Source: an uncultured Verrucomicrobiae bacterium (GTDB taxonomy: Bacteria; Verrucomicrobiota; Verrucomicrobiia; Opitutales; JABDGR01). From it: DNA of 64,000 nt. Both the position numbers and the translations under genes were made by a program. The DNA lies in contig CAVXVB010000008.1 in assembly GCA_963765205.1 (NCBI GenBank), positions 416,001-480,000 on the forward strand, written 5' to 3'. The notes below the pieces were generated by a model that was not told the DNA's origin, searched no databases, and saw only the letters and a list, made by a program, of their open reading frames with translations. This document shows positions 25,412 through 35,264 of this stretch, piece by piece. Positions within the stretch are counted from its first letter, which is position 1; every line of letters begins with the position of its first letter.

Positions 25412-26020
25412 ATGGCCGTCGAACGACTGAACCAGCGGGTGTTGGTGCTTAACCGTTTGTGGCAGGCGGTGAACATCATCGGCGTCAAGCGGGCGTTTGG
25501 CCTGCTGATGATGGATCATGCGCAGGTGGTCCACGCCGACGATGACGCCATCGAGGTGCTCAATGCCGAGGGATGGATCGCCCATTCGCTGGCCCACCCG
25601 CCGACCGACGACCGCGACTGCATCCACACGGTGCGGATGAGACTGCGGCTGCCGTCGGTGATTTTGCTGCGCTACTACGACCGCGTGCCGGCCAAGGAAG
25701 TCAAATTCAACCGGCAAAACCTTTTCGAGCGCGACGGGCATTGCTGCCAGTATTGCGGCAAGGTTTACACGGTGAAGGAATTGAATCTGGACCATGTGAT
25801 TCCGCGCATGAACGGCGGGCGCACGTCGTGGGAAAACGTCGTCACGTCGTGCGTGCGATGCAATTCGCGCAAGGCGAACCGGATGCCGCACCAGGCGGGG
25901 ATGCATTTGCTGAAAAAGCCGACGAAGCCGAAATGGCGGCCGTTTGCCTACGCCGTCAGCACCGCCGACCGCGTCGAGCATTGGGAGCCGTTTTTGGGGG
26001 AGCTGGCGGAGGTGGATTAG
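25412..26020 (+). CDS. HNH endonuclease (McrA-like)
   Basis: VLVLN, RDGHCCQYCG, LDHVIPR..GG, WENVVTSCVRCNSRK. Confidence 0.9.
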   Translation: MAVERLNQRVLVLNRLWQAVNIIGVKRAFGLLMMDHAQVVHADDDAIEVLNAEGWIAHSLAHPPTDDRDCIHTVRMRLRLPSVILLRYYDRVPAKEVKFNRQNLFERDGHCCQYCGKVYTVKELNLDHVIPRMNGGRTSWENVVTSCVRCNSRKANRMPHQAGMHLLKKPTKPKWRPFAYAVSTADRVEHWEPFLGELAEVD

Positions 26021-26071
26021 TTTTGGGTTTGAAAATTGCGGCCGGATGTTTATCATATCTTGAAAAATCAC

Positions 26072-26281
26072 ATGAAAAATTTTACCGCCGTCGTGGAACG
26101 CTGCCCGGATACCGGACTTTATGTCGGCTATGTTCCCGGATTTCCCGGCGCGCACTCCCAGGGTGAAAACCTGGATGAATTGCAGCGCAACCTTGCGGAA
26201 GTTGTCGCGATGCTGCTGGAAGACGGGGAGCCGCGCCTGGAAGCCGAATTTGTCGGCACCCAAACCATCTCAATTGCTTGA
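26072..26281 (+). CDS. hicB: HicB family antitoxin
   Basis: YVGYVPGFPGAHSQGENLDEL. Confidence 0.85.
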   Translation: MKNFTAVVERCPDTGLYVGYVPGFPGAHSQGENLDELQRNLAEVVAMLLEDGEPRLEAEFVGTQTISIA

Positions 26282-26284
26282 GCC

Positions 26285-26512
26285 ATGGTAGGCCACCTAC
26301 CCGTGCTTAAGCCGGCTGAGGTTCTCCGTATTTTGGGGCGGTTGGGTTTTGTGCAAGTCCGGCAAAAAGGTTCGCATCGGCAATTTCGCCATCCCGACGG
26401 TCGTGGCACGACAGTCCCCGACCACCGCGGCCGCGACCTCTCGCCTTTCCTTTTACGCCAAATCGCGCGCGACATTGGCCTGACCCCGGAAGAGTTTTTG
26501 AAACATCGGTAA
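26285..26512 (+). CDS. hicA: HicA family toxin
   Basis: [26 protein letters not shown]. Confidence 0.9.
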
Positions 26513-27223: not shown

Positions 27224-27493
27224 GTGGGGGGGAAAAGATGGAAGACAGGAGTCAGGTGATAGAAGCCGGACAGCGGGGCCGTGGGGGGTGTTGATAAAGT
27301 GGTTGGACTGGGTTGGATTTGGGCAAAAGGCGCTGAGGAGCCAAGGCACTTAGCCGCAGGTGATTTCCCCGACAATCAGAAGGCGTTTGCATTATTTTAT
27401 TTAAATACAGCACATAATTTTTTCGGAATTATGCACTTCACAAAGGCCACGCTCTGACGGCCTAAGCTGGCCGATTCCCTGATTTTGGGGCGG

Positions 27494-27625
27494 CTATTTC
27501 TTGCGGGCCTTGGCCTTCGCCGTCTTATACGGCGGGATGGCCTCTGGCTTCACTTGCACGACCCGGCGCATCAGGTCTGCGAACCTGACGGGCGGATGGC
27601 GCAATTCTTGGGATTGCGGTTTCAT
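27494..27625 (-). CDS. Small basic 43-aa IS-end ORF
   Basis: MKPQSQELRHPPVRFADLMRRVVQVKPEAIPPYKTAKAKARKK*; read manually, below the ORF-track cutoff. Confidence 0.5.
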   Translation of the reverse strand: MKPQSQELRHPPVRFADLMRRVVQVKPEAIPPYKTAKAKARKK

Positions 27626-27648
27626 GGCTACGCTGTCAAATAGCACGG

Positions 27649-27879
27649 ATGGGATATAAACGCAAGGGCGACAAAGGGGTATCCATTACCCTACCAGCAG
27701 AGCTTGTGGACTATATTGAAAAGCGAGCAAAGCGCATTAACGGGTCTAAGTCATGGTATGTCGCGGAAATTATTCGCGCGTGGGTGGATGCTGGCGGGAA
27801 GCCAATCGGAAGGCTGGATGAGAAAATGCAAAATGACGAAGATGGGCTTGGCAATCCACCGACTCAAAGTAAAAAGTGA
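27649..27879 (+). CDS. Ribbon-helix-helix (CopG/Arc-like) regulator
   Basis: VSITLPAELVDYIEKRAKRINGSKSWYVAEII. Confidence 0.75.
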   Translation: MGYKRKGDKGVSITLPAELVDYIEKRAKRINGSKSWYVAEIIRAWVDAGGKPIGRLDEKMQNDEDGLGNPPTQSKK

Positions 27880-27964
27880 TATAAAGCTGGAGCTACCGGA
27901 GCTTATGAAGCTACTGAAGTAATTTAAGTTACCGGAGCTAGTTCGGGATAATCGTGAAACCGTC

Positions 27965-27992
27965 TTGTCATTCGGTAACGTTCCCGTATTTT
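27965..27992 (+). promoter_or_regulatory. Putative promoter for the cargo operon (wHTH-tRNA-DUF6941)
   Basis: TTGTCA-16 bp-TATTTT upstream of 28023. Confidence 0.35.
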
Positions 27993-28022
27993 CTCACTAT
28001 GCCCGATGATAGACTATAAGTA

Positions 28023-28643
28023 ATGACGAAGCTCGACCTCGAAACGGCGGAGCAGCTTTTGGCATTGAGGTTGAGGCGGTATGATGAATTGAAAGTGGAA
28101 ATTGCAAATGTGACTTCTCAAATTCAATCCTTAGTTGATGACATCGGTGCCGTTAAGTTAGAGCAGGCCAATCAACAAAATCTTGATGGCGGAACGCCTG
28201 CTAAAATTGAGCGTCCTGAAATCAAGACACCGGCCAATGATGCCGACATTCGAGGGCGTGAAAAATACGGGGCGGCGCGCAAGGCAATAATTGTCCTTTT
28301 GCGCGAACAGGGGCCGCGTTTAATAACAACGGAAAAAATGCAGGCGGAATTAAAAATTCCACCTTCTACATTATATCGAAACCTTACTGATTTGCAGGCG
28401 GATGGAGTTATTTCCAAAATTGGAAACGCATGGTGTTTTAGCGCAATGATAAGTTCGTCCCCTTCCAGCTATCAGGCATACATAAATGAGCTTACAAATC
28501 AAGGCTTCATCGCAAACGTAGATTTAACTGCATCACCCCCGGCAACCATTCCCTATACTTCCCCGAAACCCCCTAAGGCTCGGGGGCCTAACATTTCCAA
28601 CAAATTTAATATGCCTCCACAAAACGGCGCGGCAACCGGGTGA
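28023..28643 (+). CDS. Coiled-coil plus winged-HTH protein with Pro-rich tail
   Basis: N-terminal heptad helix; TTEKMQAELKIPPSTLYRNLTDLQADGVISK HTH. Confidence 0.65.
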   Translation: MTKLDLETAEQLLALRLRRYDELKVEIANVTSQIQSLVDDIGAVKLEQANQQNLDGGTPAKIERPEIKTPANDADIRGREKYGAARKAIIVLLREQGPRLITTEKMQAELKIPPSTLYRNLTDLQADGVISKIGNAWCFSAMISSSPSSYQAYINELTNQGFIANVDLTASPPATIPYTSPKPPKARGPNISNKFNMPPQNGAATG

Positions 28644-28675
28644 TCCCCACTTAAGCGCGCCTCTGCAAAGAAATA

Positions 28676-28766
28676 ACCCCCTAACTCTGGCCCAACTTCG
28701 CGGGCGGAACCAGAAAGGGGGTCGGTAATCCCGAGGGGCCAGATTGCTCTGGCCGCTCGTTCTTTT
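28676..28766 (+). promoter_or_regulatory. Structured leader with intrinsic-terminator-like hairpin and alternative pairing
   Basis: ACCCCCT/AGGGGGT and TCTGG/CCAGA stem; CGAG-G-GGCCAGA/TCTGGCC-G-CTCG hairpin followed by TTCTTTT; TCTGGCCC (28686-28693) is also complementary to GGGCCAGA (28736-28743). Confidence 0.55.
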
Positions 28767-28773
28767 CCAATTA

Positions 28774-28861
28774 GCCTATGTGGTGTAACTGGCAGCCACG
28801 TCCGCCTTGGGGGCGGTTGCCTGTGTGAGCAGGCGTGTGGGTTCGACCCCCACCATAGGCA
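28774..28861 (+). tRNA. Class II tRNA-Leu-type body with Pro anticodon UGG (CCA end not encoded)
   Basis: Acceptor GCCTATG/CATAGGC, A73; D arm GTG-TAACTGGCAGC-CAC; anticodon arm TCCGC-CTTGGGG-GCGGT; variable arm GCCTGT-GTGA-GCAGGC; T arm GTGGG-TTCGACC-CCCAC. Confidence 0.9.
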
Positions 28862-28918
28862 TTTTTTATAGGATGACAAACAAAATTTTTAACCGAAAAC
28901 TTGAACGAAAATAAATTT

Positions 28919-29365
28919 ATGAAACTGGAGATTTTTACCCTTTGCGATGAAGCGCATGAAGCAAATGGAAAGCTCTATATCAATGGGGCATTCCAAAATC
29001 TTTTTTCGGCTGGCTTCCCATGTGTCCATCCAAGATTTTGTGTGGTCGCCCGCCTTAGATTTATTCCGATAGAGATTGGAGACCACGCCATCCAAGTTAC
29101 ATTCAAAAATGAAGACGGCAAAGATGTGCTATCTATCCCCGTAATTGAACAGAAGTTTTCGGTTCAAATACCCGAAGATAAAACCTCCATTGCCCTTCAC
29201 TGCATAATTCTTATTAACGCAACACAATTAGGGGCACCTGGAGAATACATGGTGGGTTTAGCCGTTGACCGTTTGGCCCAAGCAGAGCTTCCGTTGTATG
29301 TGTCTCAAATGCCCCCGCAAGCGCAATCGCCGGAGCCGCCTTCTGTTCACGACGGGCCGCATTAG
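28919..29365 (+). CDS. DUF6941-like beta-sandwich protein
   Basis: FTLCDEA...NGKLYINGAF...FP...PGEYMV pattern. Confidence 0.6.
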   Translation: MKLEIFTLCDEAHEANGKLYINGAFQNLFSAGFPCVHPRFCVVARLRFIPIEIGDHAIQVTFKNEDGKDVLSIPVIEQKFSVQIPEDKTSIALHCIILINATQLGAPGEYMVGLAVDRLAQAELPLYVSQMPPQAQSPEPPSVHDGPH

Positions 29366-29432
29366 CCCTTTTTTGCTCTTCAAATTGGGAGGTTTGGCTC
29401 ATGGCAAAAATTTATCATAACCCATATTTTTG

Positions 29433-30401
29433 TCAACCCCCTATCGTAACTGAGGCGCAGGCTGGCTCCTTATACCGCAACCGCTTGCCTTCGATGTTTT
29501 GGAGTCCGGCAATCGTGCGCGCGCCGTCAGTCAACTTGCGGGTGTTATAGCGATGATCGAACTCTGCGAGGTAGAGCGGCAAATGCTTGAGGGAAACATG
29601 ATGGAAGGTGCCGACGATACCGCGCTTGAGCAGGCTGAAAAAGCCCTCCACAGTGTTTGTGTGAACGTCACCCCGGACATACTCCCCGGCAGAGTGATTG
29701 ACCCGCGCGTGCTTAAAGCCCTTGGCCGCGCGTGGGTAGGGCCGGAATTGGTCGGTATAGACCTTTGCGCCCTCCGCCACGTTGGCCTGAATAACCGCTT
29801 TGAGGTTGTTCCCGGTGACGCACGCCATGACGCGCGAGCGGGCCTTCCCGTCGCGCTGGACAAGCGAAACGACCGGAACCTTGTTGCCAGTGTAACGACG
29901 CCCCATGCCCTTTGTTTTGCCGCCAACGTAGGTTTCGTCAATTTCCACGGTGCCGTCAAACTTCTGCCCGTCTAGCACTGGGTCTTTGAGCGCGTGGCGG
30001 ATACGGTGAGCCATAAACAGGGCCGTGCGATAGCTGCCAAGGCCCAACACCCGTTGCAATTCCAACGCGGCAACGCCCTTCTTGGCCGACGCGAACAGAT
30101 ACCAGCCGATAAACCACTTGGACAGCGGGATATGGCTGTCCTCGAAAACCGTGCCGACGGTGACGGTGAACTGCTTGTTGCACGCGCCGCACTGAATCAG
30201 GCCGGGGCGAACCTTCTTGGCCGGGTTCGCGGCAATGCGCCATAGGCTGTCCTGCTTGGCGTTGCGGCAATGGGGGCAAACCGGGCCGCTGGGCCACCGG
30301 ATGGCCTCTAGGTAGGCGCGGGCCTTGTCCTCACTGTCGAAGTGCTGCATGATTTCCGGCAGCGTGAGCGTCTCTGGGACTGGATTGAGTTGCTTATTCA
30401 T
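29433..30401 (-). CDS. IS1595-family DDE transposase
   Basis: IRWPSGPVCPHC...CGACNKQF zinc ribbon; VEIDETYVGG; YTD; HTNTVEGFFSLLKRG; YLAEFDHRYN. Confidence 0.95.
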   Translation of the reverse strand: MNKQLNPVPETLTLPEIMQHFDSEDKARAYLEAIRWPSGPVCPHCRNAKQDSLWRIAANPAKKVRPGLIQCGACNKQFTVTVGTVFEDSHIPLSKWFIGWYLFASAKKGVAALELQRVLGLGSYRTALFMAHRIRHALKDPVLDGQKFDGTVEIDETYVGGKTKGMGRRYTGNKVPVVSLVQRDGKARSRVMACVTGNNLKAVIQANVAEGAKVYTDQFRPYPRAAKGFKHARVNHSAGEYVRGDVHTNTVEGFFSLLKRGIVGTFHHVSLKHLPLYLAEFDHRYNTRKLTDGARTIAGLQNIEGKRLRYKEPACASVTIGG

Positions 30402-30407
30402 GCCCTC

Positions 30408-30435
30408 AATATAGCATAGTTCAAACCTTTGTCAA
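30408..30435 (-). promoter_or_regulatory. Transposase promoter with its -35 inside the right TIR
   Basis: Minus strand TTGACA-16 bp-TATATT (TGn extended), ATG 6 nt later; the left TIR has TTCACA at the equivalent position. Confidence 0.6.
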
Positions 30436-30703
30436 GTGCATAATTCCGAATTTTTTGGGCGGCAAGGAATGTTTTGATTTTATTCTCGAAGCGCATATAC
30501 ATAATATACCTCTTTGTGTTCAACTAGGGATCCATCATGAAGGTGAACGGCTGAAGCAAAAAAATTTAATTTTTAAGAAATTTGATAAAAGGCTCCGCAA
30601 AACTGTTGGAGAACCGCATAAATATAAATCGATTATAGAAATGCAGTACGTCAGACCAATAAAGTCAAAGGATTCGCCATAAGCACTTTTGCCCTAAAGT
30701 GAA

Positions 30704-32800
30704 TCACTGAGGTAGCTTTTTACCGTCACGTAGATTTCTATACCATGTAAGCGCCAAGAGGGGCCAAGCCCATTGGTAGGAAGTATATTTCAAATAAAAA
30801 ATTCTCGGAAAGCCCGTTCCGGTAAACCATGGATAATGCCAGGAGCCGTCGGGGTGTTGGGTTTCTAACAGGTATTGGATGCCGCGTTCAATTGAAGGGC
30901 GGTCTAGTTTCGAGTTGGGGTCGGAGTCGGTAGTGGACGCGGCGCAAGCAAGTAAACCCAGCAAGGCCCAAGCCGTTTGGGAGGCGGTGGAGGGGTGGTG
31001 TAAGTTTTTAGTTTCTAGTTTTTGGTTTTTAGTTTCGGATTGGTCGGCAGCTTTTTCCATTTTCCATTTTCCATCTTCTATTATTTCCCCGTAACTCGGC
31101 AGTTCGCCGGTGGGGCCGGTGGGGGTTACTTGGAAAAACGGGGCGCCAGCGCCGCGGGTTTGGGGGTCGTGGTAGGTCCAGCAGGATTCGCCCCAGCCGC
31201 CGTCGGGGTTTTGCATTTTCTCCAGCCAGTCGCGGGCGCGCAGGACGCGGGGTTGGGTCATGTCTTCGCCGATGAGGGCGAGGCCGCGCAGGACGTGCGA
31301 GGTGCCGTAAATATAATTGACGCCCCAGCGGCCGAACCAGGAGCCGTCGGGTTCCTGGGTGCGCCAGACGAAGTCGAGGGCGCGCTGGACGAGGGGGTCG
31401 GCGCGGGAGTGGCCGGTTTTGGCGAGGGTTTCGAGGGCGCGGCCGGTGATGTCGCTGCAGGGGGGGTCGAGGATGGCGTTGTGGTCGGCGAAGGGTACTT
31501 GTTCGAGCCAAGGGGTGGTGAGGTCGCGGTCGAAGGCGGCGAATCCGCCTTCCTTACATTGGAAGGCGCGGCACCAGGCCATGGCGCGCTGGAGGGCGGC
31601 GGCGCGGCGGGGTTCGTCGGTGGCGCGGAGGACGCGGAGGGCGAGGACGACTTGGAAGGTGTCGTCCACGTCGGGGTAATACTCGTTGTTGAATTCGAAG
31701 GCCCAGCCGGCGGCGGTGGGGAAGGAGACGGTTTCGGCCCAGTCGCCTTTGATTTTGATTTCTCGGTCGAGGAGCCAGTCGGCGGTTTTTTGGAGGCGGG
31801 GGTCGGCGGCGGGGACGCCGGAGTCGGCGAGGCATTGGGCGATGATGGCGGTGTCCCAAACGGGGGAATAACAGGGGGCGACGCGGAGGTCGCCGGGGTC
31901 GCCGCGGACAAGGCCGTCGAAGTCGCGGGTTTCCTTGGCGAAGAGGGGGTGGTCTTTGAGGCCGAGGAGTTCGAGGGCGATGAGGGTGTTCAACATGCCG
32001 GGGAAGATGGCGCCCATGCCGTCGGAGCCGTCGCCGAGGCGGGCGAGCATCCAGTCGCGCGCGGCGTCGAGGGCGCGCTGGCGGAGGAGGTCGGCGGGGA
32101 GGTGGTTGAGGACGCGGCCAAGCTGGTCGAGGGCGAGGAAGAGGTTGCGCCAGGAAAAGAATTCGTCGGAGCGGGGCAGTGACCAATCGCCGTGTTGGGT
32201 GCCACCGGGGTAAAGTTCGTCGAGCGAGGGGCAGGCGGGGAGGATGCGGACGGGTTTGTAATGGTTGATGACGGTGAGGGGGACGACGAGGTTGCGCGTC
32301 CAGGAACTCATTTTATAGATATGGAAGGGGGCCGAGGTGGGCAGGAGCATCATTTCGGCGGGGATGAGCGGGCAGTATTGCCACGGGAAGAGGCCGCACA
32401 TGGCGAGGTAGAGTTTGCCGAAGGTGTGGAGTTTGGGGATGCCGCCGAGGGCGAGGGCGCGTTCGCGGGCGCGGAGGAATTGGGGCGCGGTTGGCTCCAT
32501 GCCGGTGAGGCGGAGGGCGTGGTAGCCTTTGATGGTGGCGGCGATTTCGGCGGGGCCGCCGGGGAACTGGGGCCAGCCGCCGTCGGGGAGCTGGCGGGCG
32601 AGGATGTGGGCGCGGCAGCGTTCGTTCTGGGCTTTCCCGGGCTGGCCGGCCCAGTGGTAATAGAGGACGAAGTCGGAGACGACGGTGCTGTCCACAATCA
32701 ACTCGCACTCCCAAAAACCGCGGGGGTCGAAGCGGGAGAAGAGGTAGTCTTGGGCGCGGGCGATGGCGTCGCTGACGTTGATGCAGGCGGGAGCGGACAT
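30704..32800 (-). CDS. shc: Squalene-hopene cyclase, with ~50-aa repeat-derived insertion
   Basis: YPDVDDT (DXDD), QW repeats (QLPDGGW, QEPDGSWFGRWG, QNPDGGWGE), FTGTGFP. Confidence 0.93.
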   Translation of the reverse strand: MSAPACINVSDAIARAQDYLFSRFDPRGFWECELIVDSTVVSDFVLYYHWAGQPGKAQNERCRAHILARQLPDGGWPQFPGGPAEIAATIKGYHALRLTGMEPTAPQFLRARERALALGGIPKLHTFGKLYLAMCGLFPWQYCPLIPAEMMLLPTSAPFHIYKMSSWTRNLVVPLTVINHYKPVRILPACPSLDELYPGGTQHGDWSLPRSDEFFSWRNLFLALDQLGRVLNHLPADLLRQRALDAARDWMLARLGDGSDGMGAIFPGMLNTLIALELLGLKDHPLFAKETRDFDGLVRGDPGDLRVAPCYSPVWDTAIIAQCLADSGVPAADPRLQKTADWLLDREIKIKGDWAETVSFPTAAGWAFEFNNEYYPDVDDTFQVVLALRVLRATDEPRRAAALQRAMAWCRAFQCKEGGFAAFDRDLTTPWLEQVPFADHNAILDPPCSDITGRALETLAKTGHSRADPLVQRALDFVWRTQEPDGSWFGRWGVNYIYGTSHVLRGLALIGEDMTQPRVLRARDWLEKMQNPDGGWGESCWTYHDPQTRGAGAPFFQVTPTGPTGELPSYGEIIEDGKWKMEKAADQSETKNQKLETKNLHHPSTASQTAWALLGLLACAASTTDSDPNSKLDRPSIERGIQYLLETQHPDGSWHYPWFTGTGFPRIFYLKYTSYQWAWPLLALTWYRNLRDGKKLPQ

Positions 32801-32837
32801 GGGCAAAGTGGGGAATTTGGCGGAATCGCGCGGTGCC

Positions 32838-33021
32838 TTCAACATCCAATCCCGCAATCGCGGGAAACATCCAACATTCAACATCGAATGCCGGAAACCA
32901 AGCGCTTAACGTCCGAGATCAAACAGGCAACGCTCAACGTTTAACGCTTAACGCTCAAGTCAAAGCCGGTTATTTTGCCTTTCATTGGATGTTCGATGTT
33001 GGGAGTTCGATGTTGGATGTT
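32838..33021. repeat. Composite AACATCC/AACGCTC heptamer palindromic element
   Basis: aacatccaacattcaacatcgaatg ... aacgctcaacgtttaacgcttaacgctcaa ... ttcattggatgttcgatgttgggagttcgatgttggatgtt. Confidence 0.8.
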
Positions 33022-33058: not shown

Positions 33059-33946
33059 ATGATTCTGATCCTGATACCAAGCCATTTTGAGGCGGAGCCG
33101 TTTCTCAAGGGGATTGCCGGAGCGCGAAAGTCGCACCATGGCGGGGCGGATATCACGCGAGGAAAGATTGGCGAAATGGACGTGACAGTCGGGGTGATTG
33201 GGATGGGTTTGCCACACGCAAAGTTAAGAGCGAAGGCGGTGGTGGAGTATTGCAGAATGGAAGATGGAAAATGGAAAAAGGAAAAAGAGGGCGAAGGGCG
33301 AAGGGCGAAGGGCGAAGGGGAACGGGGAAGAAGAATGGAAAATGGAAAATGGAAAATGGAAGAAATCGGAGGCCAACCGGAAACCCTCCTTCGCCAAGGC
33401 TACGGAGGGCAGGCTCGAAACGCGAAACCCGAAACTGTTCGCGGGATTATTCTGGCGGGATTTGCGGGGGCGCTTGAGCCGGGATTGAAGCGGGGCGATA
33501 TTTTTATAACGGCGGGGACGGAGTATTTGCTGCCGCATTTGCCGGAGGGGGAGCGGCCGCGCGCGGCCAAGCTGGCGACGGTGAACGATATCGCGGGGCC
33601 GGCGGCAAAAAGGGAATTGTTCGAGCGCGATGGCGCGCGGTTGTGCGACATGGAGCAGGCGCACATCGAGGCGGTGGCGCGTGACTTCGGCCTGCCGCTC
33701 ATCGGCATCCGCATCGTGAGCGACGAGGTGGACGAGGACCTGCCGGTCGAGACGCTGAGTCGCTACTACGACCAGGCGACGGGGACTTACACGCCGTGGA
33801 AACTGGCCGGGCACCTGATCCGGCATCCTTCTAAGATCGGGCCGCTGGCTGCGTTTGTTCGGCCTTTGTCGCCGATTCGCAACCACATGAGTGACTGCCT
33901 CCACACATGGCTGCGCCAGGCGGGGCCGCAGTTGTTTCACTCTTAA
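33059..33946 (+). CDS. hpnG: Hopanoid-associated nucleoside phosphorylase (HpnG-like) with repeat-derived insertion
   Basis: GMG, ILAGFAGALEPGLKRGDI, CDME, IRIVSD; located between shc and hpnH. Confidence 0.7.
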   Translation: MILILIPSHFEAEPFLKGIAGARKSHHGGADITRGKIGEMDVTVGVIGMGLPHAKLRAKAVVEYCRMEDGKWKKEKEGEGRRAKGEGERGRRMENGKWKMEEIGGQPETLLRQGYGGQARNAKPETVRGIILAGFAGALEPGLKRGDIFITAGTEYLLPHLPEGERPRAAKLATVNDIAGPAAKRELFERDGARLCDMEQAHIEAVARDFGLPLIGIRIVSDEVDEDLPVETLSRYYDQATGTYTPWKLAGHLIRHPSKIGPLAAFVRPLSPIRNHMSDCLHTWLRQAGPQLFHS

Positions 33947-35045
33947 CTGGGGACGTCGTGAGCGACGCCCCTACAGTAGCGCGGGCTTTGGGCGCGACGG
34001 CGCGGGCCATGGGGGGGATCGCGTCGCCCTCGGCGTCGGGGTTGAAAAAATACTTGGCGGTGCGGGCGAGGCCGCCGACGGAGCCGAACATGTCGTTGAC
34101 GGCGCTGGCTTCGTAGCCGCAGTGGACCATGCAGTCCTTGCAGCGTTCGTCCCAGCCTTTTTGGCCATAGCGGGCCCAGTCGGTGGTTTCGATGAGTTCC
34201 TTGAAGGTGGTGGCGAAGCCGTCGCCAAGGAGGTAGCAGGGCTTTTGCCAGCCGAAGACGTTGTAGGTGGGGTTGCCCCAAGGGGTGCAATCGTAGTCAA
34301 TTTTGCCCTGCAAAAAGGCGAGGAAGTTGGACGAGTGGTTGAAACGCCAGGTTTTTTTCGCGGAGCCGAGGATTTGCTTGAAGAGGGTCTTGGTGCGGCT
34401 GCGTTCGAGGAAGATTTCCTGCTCGGGGGCCTTGGCATAGGGGTAGCCGGGGGAGATCATCATGCTCTCGACGCCGAGGTCCATCATGTCGTCGAAGAAG
34501 CGGCGGACGCGGTCGGGGTTGGCGTTGTTGAAGACGGTGGTGTTGGTGGTGACGCGGAAACCGCGGGCGACAGCTTTGCGGATGGCGGCTTCGGCGATGT
34601 CGAAGGTGCCGTCGCGGCAGACGGATTTGTCGTGCTCTTCCTTCAGCCCGTCCATGTGGATGGAGAAAGTGAGTTGTTTGTGCGGCGTGAAGGAGTCGAG
34701 CTTGCGTTCGAGTAGAAGGGCGTTCGTGCAGAGGTAAATATAGCGACCTTGCTTGATGAGGCCGTCCACGATGGCGTTGATTTCGGGGTGGATGAGGGGT
34801 TCGCCACCGGCGATGCTGACGACGGGCGCGCCGCATTCCTCAGCGGCGGCGAGGGCTTGCTCGGCGGAGACGCGCTTTTTGAGGATGTGCTCGGGGTATT
34901 GAATTTTTCCGCAGCCTTCGCATTCGAGATTACAACGGAAGAGGGGCTCGAGCATGAGCACGAGCGGGTAGCGCTTGACGCCCCGGAGCTTTTGCCCGAG
35001 GACATACGACATCACTTTGAAGGCTTGGGAGACGGGAACGGCCAT
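33831..35045 (-). CDS. hpnH: Adenosyl-hopene transferase, radical SAM
   Basis: RYPLVLMLEPLFRCNLECEGCGKI, GGEPL, CTPWG, CMVHCGYE. Confidence 0.93.
   Translation of the reverse strand: MAVPVSQAFKVMSYVLGQKLRGVKRYPLVLMLEPLFRCNLECEGCGKIQYPEHILKKRVSAEQALAAAEECGAPVVSIAGGEPLIHPEINAIVDGLIKQGRYIYLCTNALLLERKLDSFTPHKQLTFSIHMDGLKEEHDKSVCRDGTFDIAEAAIRKAVARGFRVTTNTTVFNNANPDRVRRFFDDMMDLGVESMMISPGYPYAKAPEQEIFLERSRTKTLFKQILGSAKKTWRFNHSSNFLAFLQGKIDYDCTPWGNPTYNVFGWQKPCYLLGDGFATTFKELIETTDWARYGQKGWDERCKDCMVHCGYEASAVNDMFGSVGGLARTAKYFFNPDAEGDAIPPMARAVAPKARATVGASLTTSPVKSETTAAPPGAAMCGGSHSCGCESATKAEQTQPAARS
33949..33974 (-). repeat. GTAG-type REP-like hairpin inside the hpnH 3' end
   Basis: Minus strand GTAG-GGGCGTCG-CTCA-CGACGTCC. 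Confidence 0.6.
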
Positions 35046-35264
35046 AATGGCGGGCACTATCACCCGGAATGTCCCGGGTGTCAATGCTTATGCTTTAAGT
35101 GGTTGGGTGGCGGAGACTTGAAGCCGGACTTAAGCAAACGCTGTGCCGCAGATGGAGGCGGCATGGAATCCAAGCTGCACCGCAAAGGCGCGAAGGGCAA
35201 GAAGGACGTTTTTAGCCAAGGCTAACTGAACCATCGCCCGCCATCTCTATGTGGCTGAAAGGAA

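Follow-up and report, generated by a model that had tools for sequence, protein, structure and literature searches.

A single tRNA can gate genes through a rare codon, as in the bldA tRNA-Leu(UAA)/TTA control of Streptomyces and the argU control of lambda integrase, where the tRNAs are host-encoded and decode correctly, unlike the tRNA examined here. The latter combines a leucine body with a proline anticodon and lies on a 3,025-bp IS1595 transposon at 27424-30448 of the window, which is the whole 64,000-nucleotide stretch of DNA analysed from an uncultured Verrucomicrobiae bacterium (contig CAVXVB010000008.1, positions 416,001 to 480,000). The reading favoured here, with a probability of about 60%, is that this is a natural missense-suppressor tRNA that would act as a conditional switch recoding the element's own transposase. 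The element possesses the DDE transposase with a zinc ribbon, the inverted repeats and the 8-bp duplication of the IS1595 family, and it resembles the IS1595 transporter insertion sequences MTnSag1 and tISCpe8 (PMC5704250, PMC12561309) in its DDE transposase, inverted repeats of ~25 bp, 8-bp duplication and passenger genes. It differs from them in that the passenger is a putative recoding tRNA matched to transposase codons.

Allo-tRNAs (Mukai et al., PMC5389517; PMC7609411) share with the window tRNA a long arm, a mismatch between anticodon and body, an occurrence in soil bacteria and toxin-antitoxin or transposon neighbours, and they act as missense suppressors that can kill E. coli. However, allo-tRNAs have an 8/4 or 9/3 branch and serine or alanine identity, whereas the window tRNA has a 7/5 leucine body, with A73 in place of G73/U73 and C3-G70 in place of G3:U70, and the part of PMC5389517 covered contains no link to transposase codons. 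The tRNA-ProX of Streptomyces and Kitasatospora (PMC10404621, PMC11415595) are likewise natural bacterial mistranslating tRNAs of dual identity, but follow the reverse logic, with a proline body, a non-proline anticodon and a dedicated ProRSx in a chromosomal operon; the window tRNA shows no such arrangement, and transposons and mobile elements go unmentioned in the main text of PMC10404621. The IS1595 system would work most like phage stop-codon recoding (Borges et al., bioRxiv 10.1101/2021.08.26.457843; PMC10879173, on theta ribozymes), in which a mobile element times expression with a tRNA and a matching codon in chosen genes, and the ochre variants described below come closest to it. Unlike the phage systems, it involves a 3-kb insertion sequence, mostly an ambiguously read sense codon, and one target enzyme. 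A full-text literature search, with most subscription papers and supplements (such as those of PMC5389517) outside it, found neither an insertion sequence with a leucine-body, proline-anticodon tRNA nor transposase codons matched to a tRNA. The element is real and recurrent and is not explained by known systems; the comparative support is strong.

The body of the tRNA carries A73, A15-U48, G18G19, A20a, a 7/5 branch, C3-G70 and G1-C72, together with a U27.U43 mismatch, and its CCA end is not encoded. In E. coli, A73, A15-U48, G18G19 and A20a are leucine determinants, and the proline determinants include G72 and G15:C48 (PMC9976931). Under these rules the window tRNA has every body feature of the leucyl-tRNA synthetase (LeuRS) identity set and lacks the leucine anticodon (A35). 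The prolyl-tRNA synthetase (ProRS) set is represented by G35, G36, G37 and A73 and is missing C1-G72, G15:C48 and the short variable loop; partial prolylation may occur. Viral tRNAs with the same D-arm read leucine codons in 123 of 123 cases, none with a non-A35 anticodon among the matches listed, and these relatives and the leucine determinants together indicate a leucine tRNA one base from UAG. An assembly error as the origin of the odd tRNA is ruled out by a contig from the soil-metagenome run X1, possibly the sample from which the host genome derived, which equals 28246-29139 of the window with zero letter differences and includes the TGG anticodon. ARAGORN, applied to the whole host genome, found a normal tRNA-Pro(TGG) on contig C5 and five tRNA-Leu genes elsewhere. 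A DNA search of the host phylum with the tRNA gave 18 loci that were checked, all ordinary tRNA-Leu genes, and a plasmid search for such tRNAs gave zero matches. Host contig C9 also contains, at 1287772-1288740, a seven-gene cluster of atypical tRNAs (Glu, Gly, Lys, Cys, Trp, Pro, Asn) that resembles a horizontally acquired tRNA array.

The earlier note on this DNA had proposed mining genomes and metagenomes for IS1595 elements with internal tRNAs, and in such mining the recoded tRNA recurs. GTDB genomes were scanned for leucine-body tRNAs with an NGG anticodon, yielding 84 stretches, of which 83 were parsed, with flanks of up to 4 kb (less than 4 kb at 8 loci). Anticodon TGG accounts for 63 of these, CGG for 10, AGG for 8 and GGG for 2. 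An IS1595 transposase lies in the flank of 44/83, and 26/83 sit inside elements with inverted repeats and an exact 8-bp duplication, which span six phyla, chiefly Acidobacteriota, Pseudomonadota and Planctomycetota. As controls, 0/80 viral loci with an ordinary tRNA-Leu (3-kb flanks) and 3/54 other host tRNAs are near an IS1595 transposase. Among 100 viral leucine-body tRNAs with non-A35 anticodons, 7 adjoin the transposase and 4 are inside full elements. A metagenome scan for non-proline anticodons gave at least 120 matches, of which 119 were parsed and 11 adjoin the transposase; 9 of these 11 are ochre (TTA) tRNAs, out of 20 ochre tRNAs among the matches listed. In the reverse search, 8 of the best 80 of 572 confirmed viral IS1595 loci carry such a tRNA, which corresponds to about one in ten of the close IS1595 relatives on viral contigs, and many soil-bacterial 'tRNA-Pro' annotations may therefore be mobile suppressors. 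All five helices covary in an alignment of 48 element tRNAs, with the 7/5 branch throughout. On sequence grounds, the odd leucine-body tRNAs are a family on IS1595 transposons.

Leucine-body tRNAs with other anticodons were also observed. Among the 119 parsed metagenome matches, 24 are intact tRNAs with anticodon CGC (alanine, GCG), none near IS1595 and all in chromosomal-looking contexts (loci including L349, L354, L361, L393, L397, L403, L414 and L423); they are possibly a separate lineage-wide class or a case of GCG reassignment. Anticodons GCC (glycine) and GTC (aspartate) occur at L164, L178, L209, L215, L223, L236 and metagenome loci, mostly not near IS1595, and many of these tRNAs have broken acceptor stems. 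One locus contains a tandem pair of odd tRNAs, a leucine-body GGA and an allo-like UAU (L481, 4676-4859), and a tRNA with a serine-like body and anticodon CGC lies near a UGG element (L542, 5689-5775).

To compare codon usage, a set of 145 transposases of <80% identity was assembled, with 12 near-copies dropped and genes of <750 nt left out. It comprises 38 transposases from elements with a UGG tRNA, 87 from tRNA-less elements (L519 having been moved to AGG), 7 ochre, 5 AGG, 4 CGG and 4 others; the genome-derived tRNA-less controls have 1.5-kb flanks, from which a more distant tRNA could escape. CCA occurs in frame at 9.8 per 1000 codons in UGG transposases and 3.9 in tRNA-less ones, and a motif at the DNA level is ruled out, the other two frames having no CCA excess. 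At the C-terminal site, the third residue after KRLxY, CCA is present in 20/32 UGG transposases versus 1/58 tRNA-less, and at the hinge site, after HRIRxAM, in 25/36 versus 5/67; the N-terminal proline is CCA in 14/15 UGG transposases, with almost no controls. Across five hot columns, CCA makes up 65/77 of prolines in UGG transposases versus 11/76 in tRNA-less ones, and across eight core columns 5/158 versus 34/369 (p 0.017). The avoidance of CCA at core prolines suggests that substitution is frequent enough to be selected against, and its enrichment at fixed, tolerant sites suggests that the element gains from substitution. In four held-out UGG elements, found via the transposase, CCA encodes 8/9 hot-column and 0/18 core-column prolines. 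On the tree, the C-terminal site yields 9 independent pairs, 6.1 of which run the same way and 0 the opposite way (median p 0.03, with L519 labelled tRNA-less).

The window transposase matches PF12762 (E 9e-36), PF12760 (E 1e-13) and NF033547 (196 bits, cut-off 75), and residues D155, E156, D217, N249 and E252 are invariant in 26 relatives. A tRNA-less sister element in the same genome encodes a transposase of 74% identity. Apart from P7 and P141, the two proteins have eight prolines in common, all of which are CCG or CCC in the window, and the sister uses CCA at two of these eight core sites, a mirror pattern. In an AlphaFold model of the window transposase (predicted local distance difference test score 87.5), P141 opens the linker helix that joins the helix-turn-helix (HTH) to the catalytic domain, the termini contain P7, P9 and P313, and P223 is part of a short helix. 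Searches of solved structures with the transposase returned only zinc-finger and generic integrase-fold matches.

Elements with an ochre tRNA show a parallel arrangement, in which the stop codon falls precisely on the C-terminal site in 7/7 transposases (4 TAA, 3 TAG), compared with 0/58 controls; one UGG element stops there likewise. Readthrough in three of the TAA elements would add a QLxLPGF-like tail, which resembles the beta-clamp motif of other transposases (PMC3971601), and in the UGG element L207 a CCA read as leucine would give QLLLF.

In the proposed mechanism, the host LeuRS, which by an established rule disregards the anticodon, would charge the tRNA with leucine, and the expressed tRNA would compete with host tRNA-Pro(UGG) and insert leucine at CCA codons. 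As CCA is confined to a few hinge and tail prolines and nearly absent at core prolines, recoding would give a folded but altered enzyme and not a dead one. The tRNA would be kept low because host proteins would also be mistranslated by it, and the hairpin between the tRNA and the upstream gene, the convergent promoters and probably the coiled-coil winged-helix (wHTH) protein seen in the window are the candidate means of repression. Activation or retargeting is slightly preferred over damping as the direction of the switch. Three observations point to activation: tRNA-less transposases have leucine in the C-terminal column more often than any other residue (19/87), the KRLxYxxL end is truncated at that site by proline as well as by the ochre stop, and no class has shorter tails than the ochre elements (2 residues versus a median of ~6-7). 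The rarity of leucine at the hinge of tRNA-less transposases (3/87) points to damping. A simple lock in its strong form, in which leucine is needed where homologues have a conserved leucine, is ruled out, as only 2 CCA codons fall in leucine-dominated columns and tRNA-less relatives mostly keep proline or other residues.

A wider version of the proposal is tentative. It envisages a widespread class of IS1595 elements with its own code switch, in which a stress-released leucine tRNA would rewrite transposase prolines or an ochre stop and so activate or retarget transposition, some lineages would expose a sliding-clamp motif, and host mistranslation would tie mobilisation to an inducible toxic state. 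If true, this would be the smallest known replicon running its own codon reassignment, and it would supply what has so far been missing for natural mistranslating tRNAs, a programmed ambiguity of a sense codon whose target protein can be identified. With five codons, one gene and one tRNA, the system offers a direct test of mistranslation as an adaptive regulatory signal, as well as natural, portable leucine suppressors for proline and ochre codons.

Several observations weigh against recoding of the transposase. Among tRNA-less elements with near-perfect ends, proline is present at the hinge in 10/18 and leucine at the C-terminal site in 0/18; leucine is thus not required for mobility, and the tRNA would be a modulator and not an obligatory key. 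The discovery set itself served to define the hot columns, the held-out set consists of four elements, and the hinge site alone is not significant in independent pairs (p 0.25). According to the tree labels, CCA is missing from both the hinge and the C-terminal site in several UGG elements. The ochre group represents about two lineages, and 3/7 of its members stop with TAG. AGG tRNAs and CCT match only weakly, since controls often have CCT at these sites, and no excess of cognate codons was found in the single GGA, GTC and TGT elements. CCA in the small basic open reading frame (ORF) that accompanies the transposase is not above controls, and recoding of this ORF is ruled out; in the wHTH genes, a codon pattern is not obvious by eye.

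The commonest neighbour of these tRNAs is a gene of the coiled-coil wHTH type. A profile built from 24 hand-picked members of this very divergent family, all from tRNA-bearing loci, recovered 7 more, each of them in a tRNA-bearing element, and had matches in 0/87 tRNA-less ones. The window protein, likely a regulator, fits the family weakly (leave-one-out E 6e-4, or 0.08 by alignment), and an atlas search with it returned only unnamed clusters, at <0.9. A stable fold directly upstream of the tRNA (z < -2) is present in 31/48 elements. Recurrence is limited to the coiled-coil wHTH gene and the hairpin upstream of the tRNA, which rules out a conserved five-part module. The self-contained cargo unit of the earlier note is likewise not supported: its ribbon-helix-helix (RHH) gene recurs nowhere and its DUF6941 gene at one other locus only.

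It is unlikely, but arguable from the same anatomy, that the tRNA is chiefly a toxin for addiction or abortive infection, acting by proteome-wide mistranslation of CCA, with the hairpin, antisense promoter and wHTH protein as the antitoxin side and the transposase codons as a side effect. Toxicity in E. coli is known for related odd tRNAs (PMC5389517; PMC10404621), and genes of toxin-antitoxin or defence type are frequent in the cargo of these elements (ParE, Phd, MqsA, Fic, SocA, NYN, RelA/SpoT, ImmA/IrrE and dCTP deaminase, with 132 of 206 candidate-type ORFs scanned); synthetase genes number zero among those 132. CCA is also rarer in the host than in AT-rich invaders, as had been supposed, at 6.4 per 1000 codons (11% of proline codons) versus 14-17 in AT-rich viral loci, a difference of 2-3 times. 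The tRNA and wHTH pair is found even without IS1595, in the prophage-like loci L166, L205 and L212 on viral contigs, where a promoter and a coiled-coil wHTH gene accompany a leucine-body tRNA (UGG or UUA); by eye, L166 and L205 have an integrase-like ORF on the opposite strand. A candidate for the convergent antisense control of type I-like toxin-antitoxin systems is a -10-like motif in antisense orientation, located 3-13 nt beyond the tRNA in 25/51 elements, against 10.5 expected and 7/53 host tRNAs, but in only 2/7 held-out elements and weakly in the window, and PADLOC matches cover solely the HTH stretch. A toxin would account for the avoidance of CCA at core prolines but not for its presence at hot-column prolines, and is less favoured because it does not predict this strongest signal of fixed-site CCA with core avoidance.

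Recoding must also be weighed against a translation gate in which the amino acid is irrelevant, which is judged distinctly improbable. Here CCA at stall-prone prolines would create a demand for scarce UGG decoding, the leucine-charged tRNA would lift the stall when proline is scarce through starvation or tRNA-Pro has been cleaved, and the sites would merely be those that tolerate leucine. The low share of CCA among host proline codons, the location of CCA sites at variable positions, often after D, E or Q, and the functioning of tRNA-less elements with proline at these sites are all consistent with it. However, core prolines would still need tRNA-Pro, a true tRNA-Pro would decode CCA without harm, and any tolerant position would serve, yet three sites dominate. 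That an inert tRNA-Leu(UAG), captured and altered at one base, is merely hitch-hiking and that the codon pattern reflects shared ancestry fits the single change between UAG and UGG, the clustering of tRNA presence on the tree (22 changes versus 43.7 when shuffled) and the U27.U43 mismatch, but is very improbable and already largely refuted by the 63 UGG anticodons versus 20 for the other three proline anticodons, the covariation of stems across phyla, the CCA codon shared by transposases of ~40-50% identity and the mirror pattern of the sister element.

The features of the element are collected in the table. The terminal repeats agree at 22/23 positions, and the sole mismatch is inside the -35 box of the transposase promoter, so that decay is not a necessary explanation for it. 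With a perfect 8-bp duplication, zero internal stops in the transposase and a cargo richer in AT (GC 0.483 versus 0.599 in the transposase and ~0.60 in the host genome), the element is as the earlier note described it, and is an intact insertion, probably of recent date. The RHH, wHTH and DUF6941 genes are on the strand opposite to that of the transposase.

Table. Features of the IS1595 element in window coordinates.
Feature	Position	Strand	Remarks
tRNA, leucine body, proline anticodon TGG, long variable arm	28774..28861	+	anticodon at 28808-28810
IS1595 DDE transposase, 322 aa	29433..30401	-	zinc ribbon, HTH, D155/D217/E252
CCA codons of the transposase	P7 (30381-3), P9 (30375-7), P141 (29979-81), P223 (29733-5), P313 (29463-5)	-	
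Left target-site duplication, 8 bp	27416..27423	.	AATTTTTT
Left terminal inverted repeat, 23 bp	27424..27446	+	TTCACA, against TTGACA in right repeat
Basic Lys/Pro-rich ORF, 43 aa	27494..27625	-	homologues in tRNA-less sister elements L562, L557
Ribbon-helix-helix protein, 76 aa	27649..27879	+	PF01402 E 7e-4, just under curated cut-off
Pair of 13-bp direct repeats, a possible operator, plus a 9/12 promoter-like site preceding the wHTH gene	27891..27992	+	
Coiled-coil plus winged-helix protein, 206 aa	28023..28643	+	HTH matches sub-threshold
Two leader hairpins	28676..28759	+	28676-28722, 28732-28759
DUF6941 protein, 148 aa	28919..29365	+	immunoglobulin-like beta sandwich; E 1e-31
10/12 promoter-like site at transposase end	29409..29436	-	antisense into DUF6941 and tRNA; consensus match only
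11/12 extended -10 promoter of transposase	30408..30435	-	-35 box within right repeat
Right terminal inverted repeat	30426..30448	-	
Right target-site duplication, 8 bp	30449..30456	.	AATTTTTT

The cargo genes named previously all exist, with a sixth, the 43-aa basic ORF, overlooked; this ORF type is common in IS1595 elements with or without a tRNA. Of the labels given to them, RHH just misses the curated cut-off and wHTH has sub-threshold HTH matches only, whereas 'DUF6941-like' was too weak a term for a clear member of that family. The RNA switch proposed for the leader fared poorly. Its two hairpins have z about -2 (z -2.0 for the leader), the second being terminator-like and ending 15 nt before the tRNA; an alternative anti-terminator pairing of 28686-93 with 28736-43 is 9 kcal/mol worse than the hairpins, and 28644-28773 has no Rfam match at E up to 1, which together argue against a riboswitch.

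Credible homologues of the RHH protein were absent from the fetched loci, and RHH looks like an ordinary passenger and not a conserved partner. DUF6941 is present in 99/201 host-phylum genomes, mostly as a single copy, and the cargo gene is a second copy of this host-phylum gene. It has no odd tRNA beside it in 16 of 30 loci checked and adjoins one in a single other locus, after the wHTH-tRNA pair of L303 (a short locus); DUF6941 is probably an ordinary passenger. Its fold resembles the Wzt carbohydrate-binding domain at a template modelling score of ~0.5, which is a lead only. An 8,256-bp ENA contig encodes a DUF6941 member (P0002) that shares 83% identity with the cargo copy, which suggests a close relative of the element. 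Single-protein locus searches from DUF6941 and from the transposase gave zero further loci.

The element is present as a single copy in the host genome. No empty site was found in 40 relatives, and no junction bypassing the element was found in four sequencing runs. The 4-Mb host genome has twelve IS1595 transposase matches at E <=1e-40 (contigs C2, C5, C6, C8 and C9) and five further complete IS1595 elements with different cargo, which by eye includes an HNH protein, an RHH with a PEP-CTERM-like protein and a second transposase-like insertion. At 25412-26512 of the window, 900 bp left of the element, an HNH nuclease precedes a toxin-antitoxin pair, HicB-like and HicA. The element lies between a methyltransferase and hopanoid-like genes (squalene-hopene cyclase, HpnH; named by eye from translation; 30704-32884 and 33831-35084).

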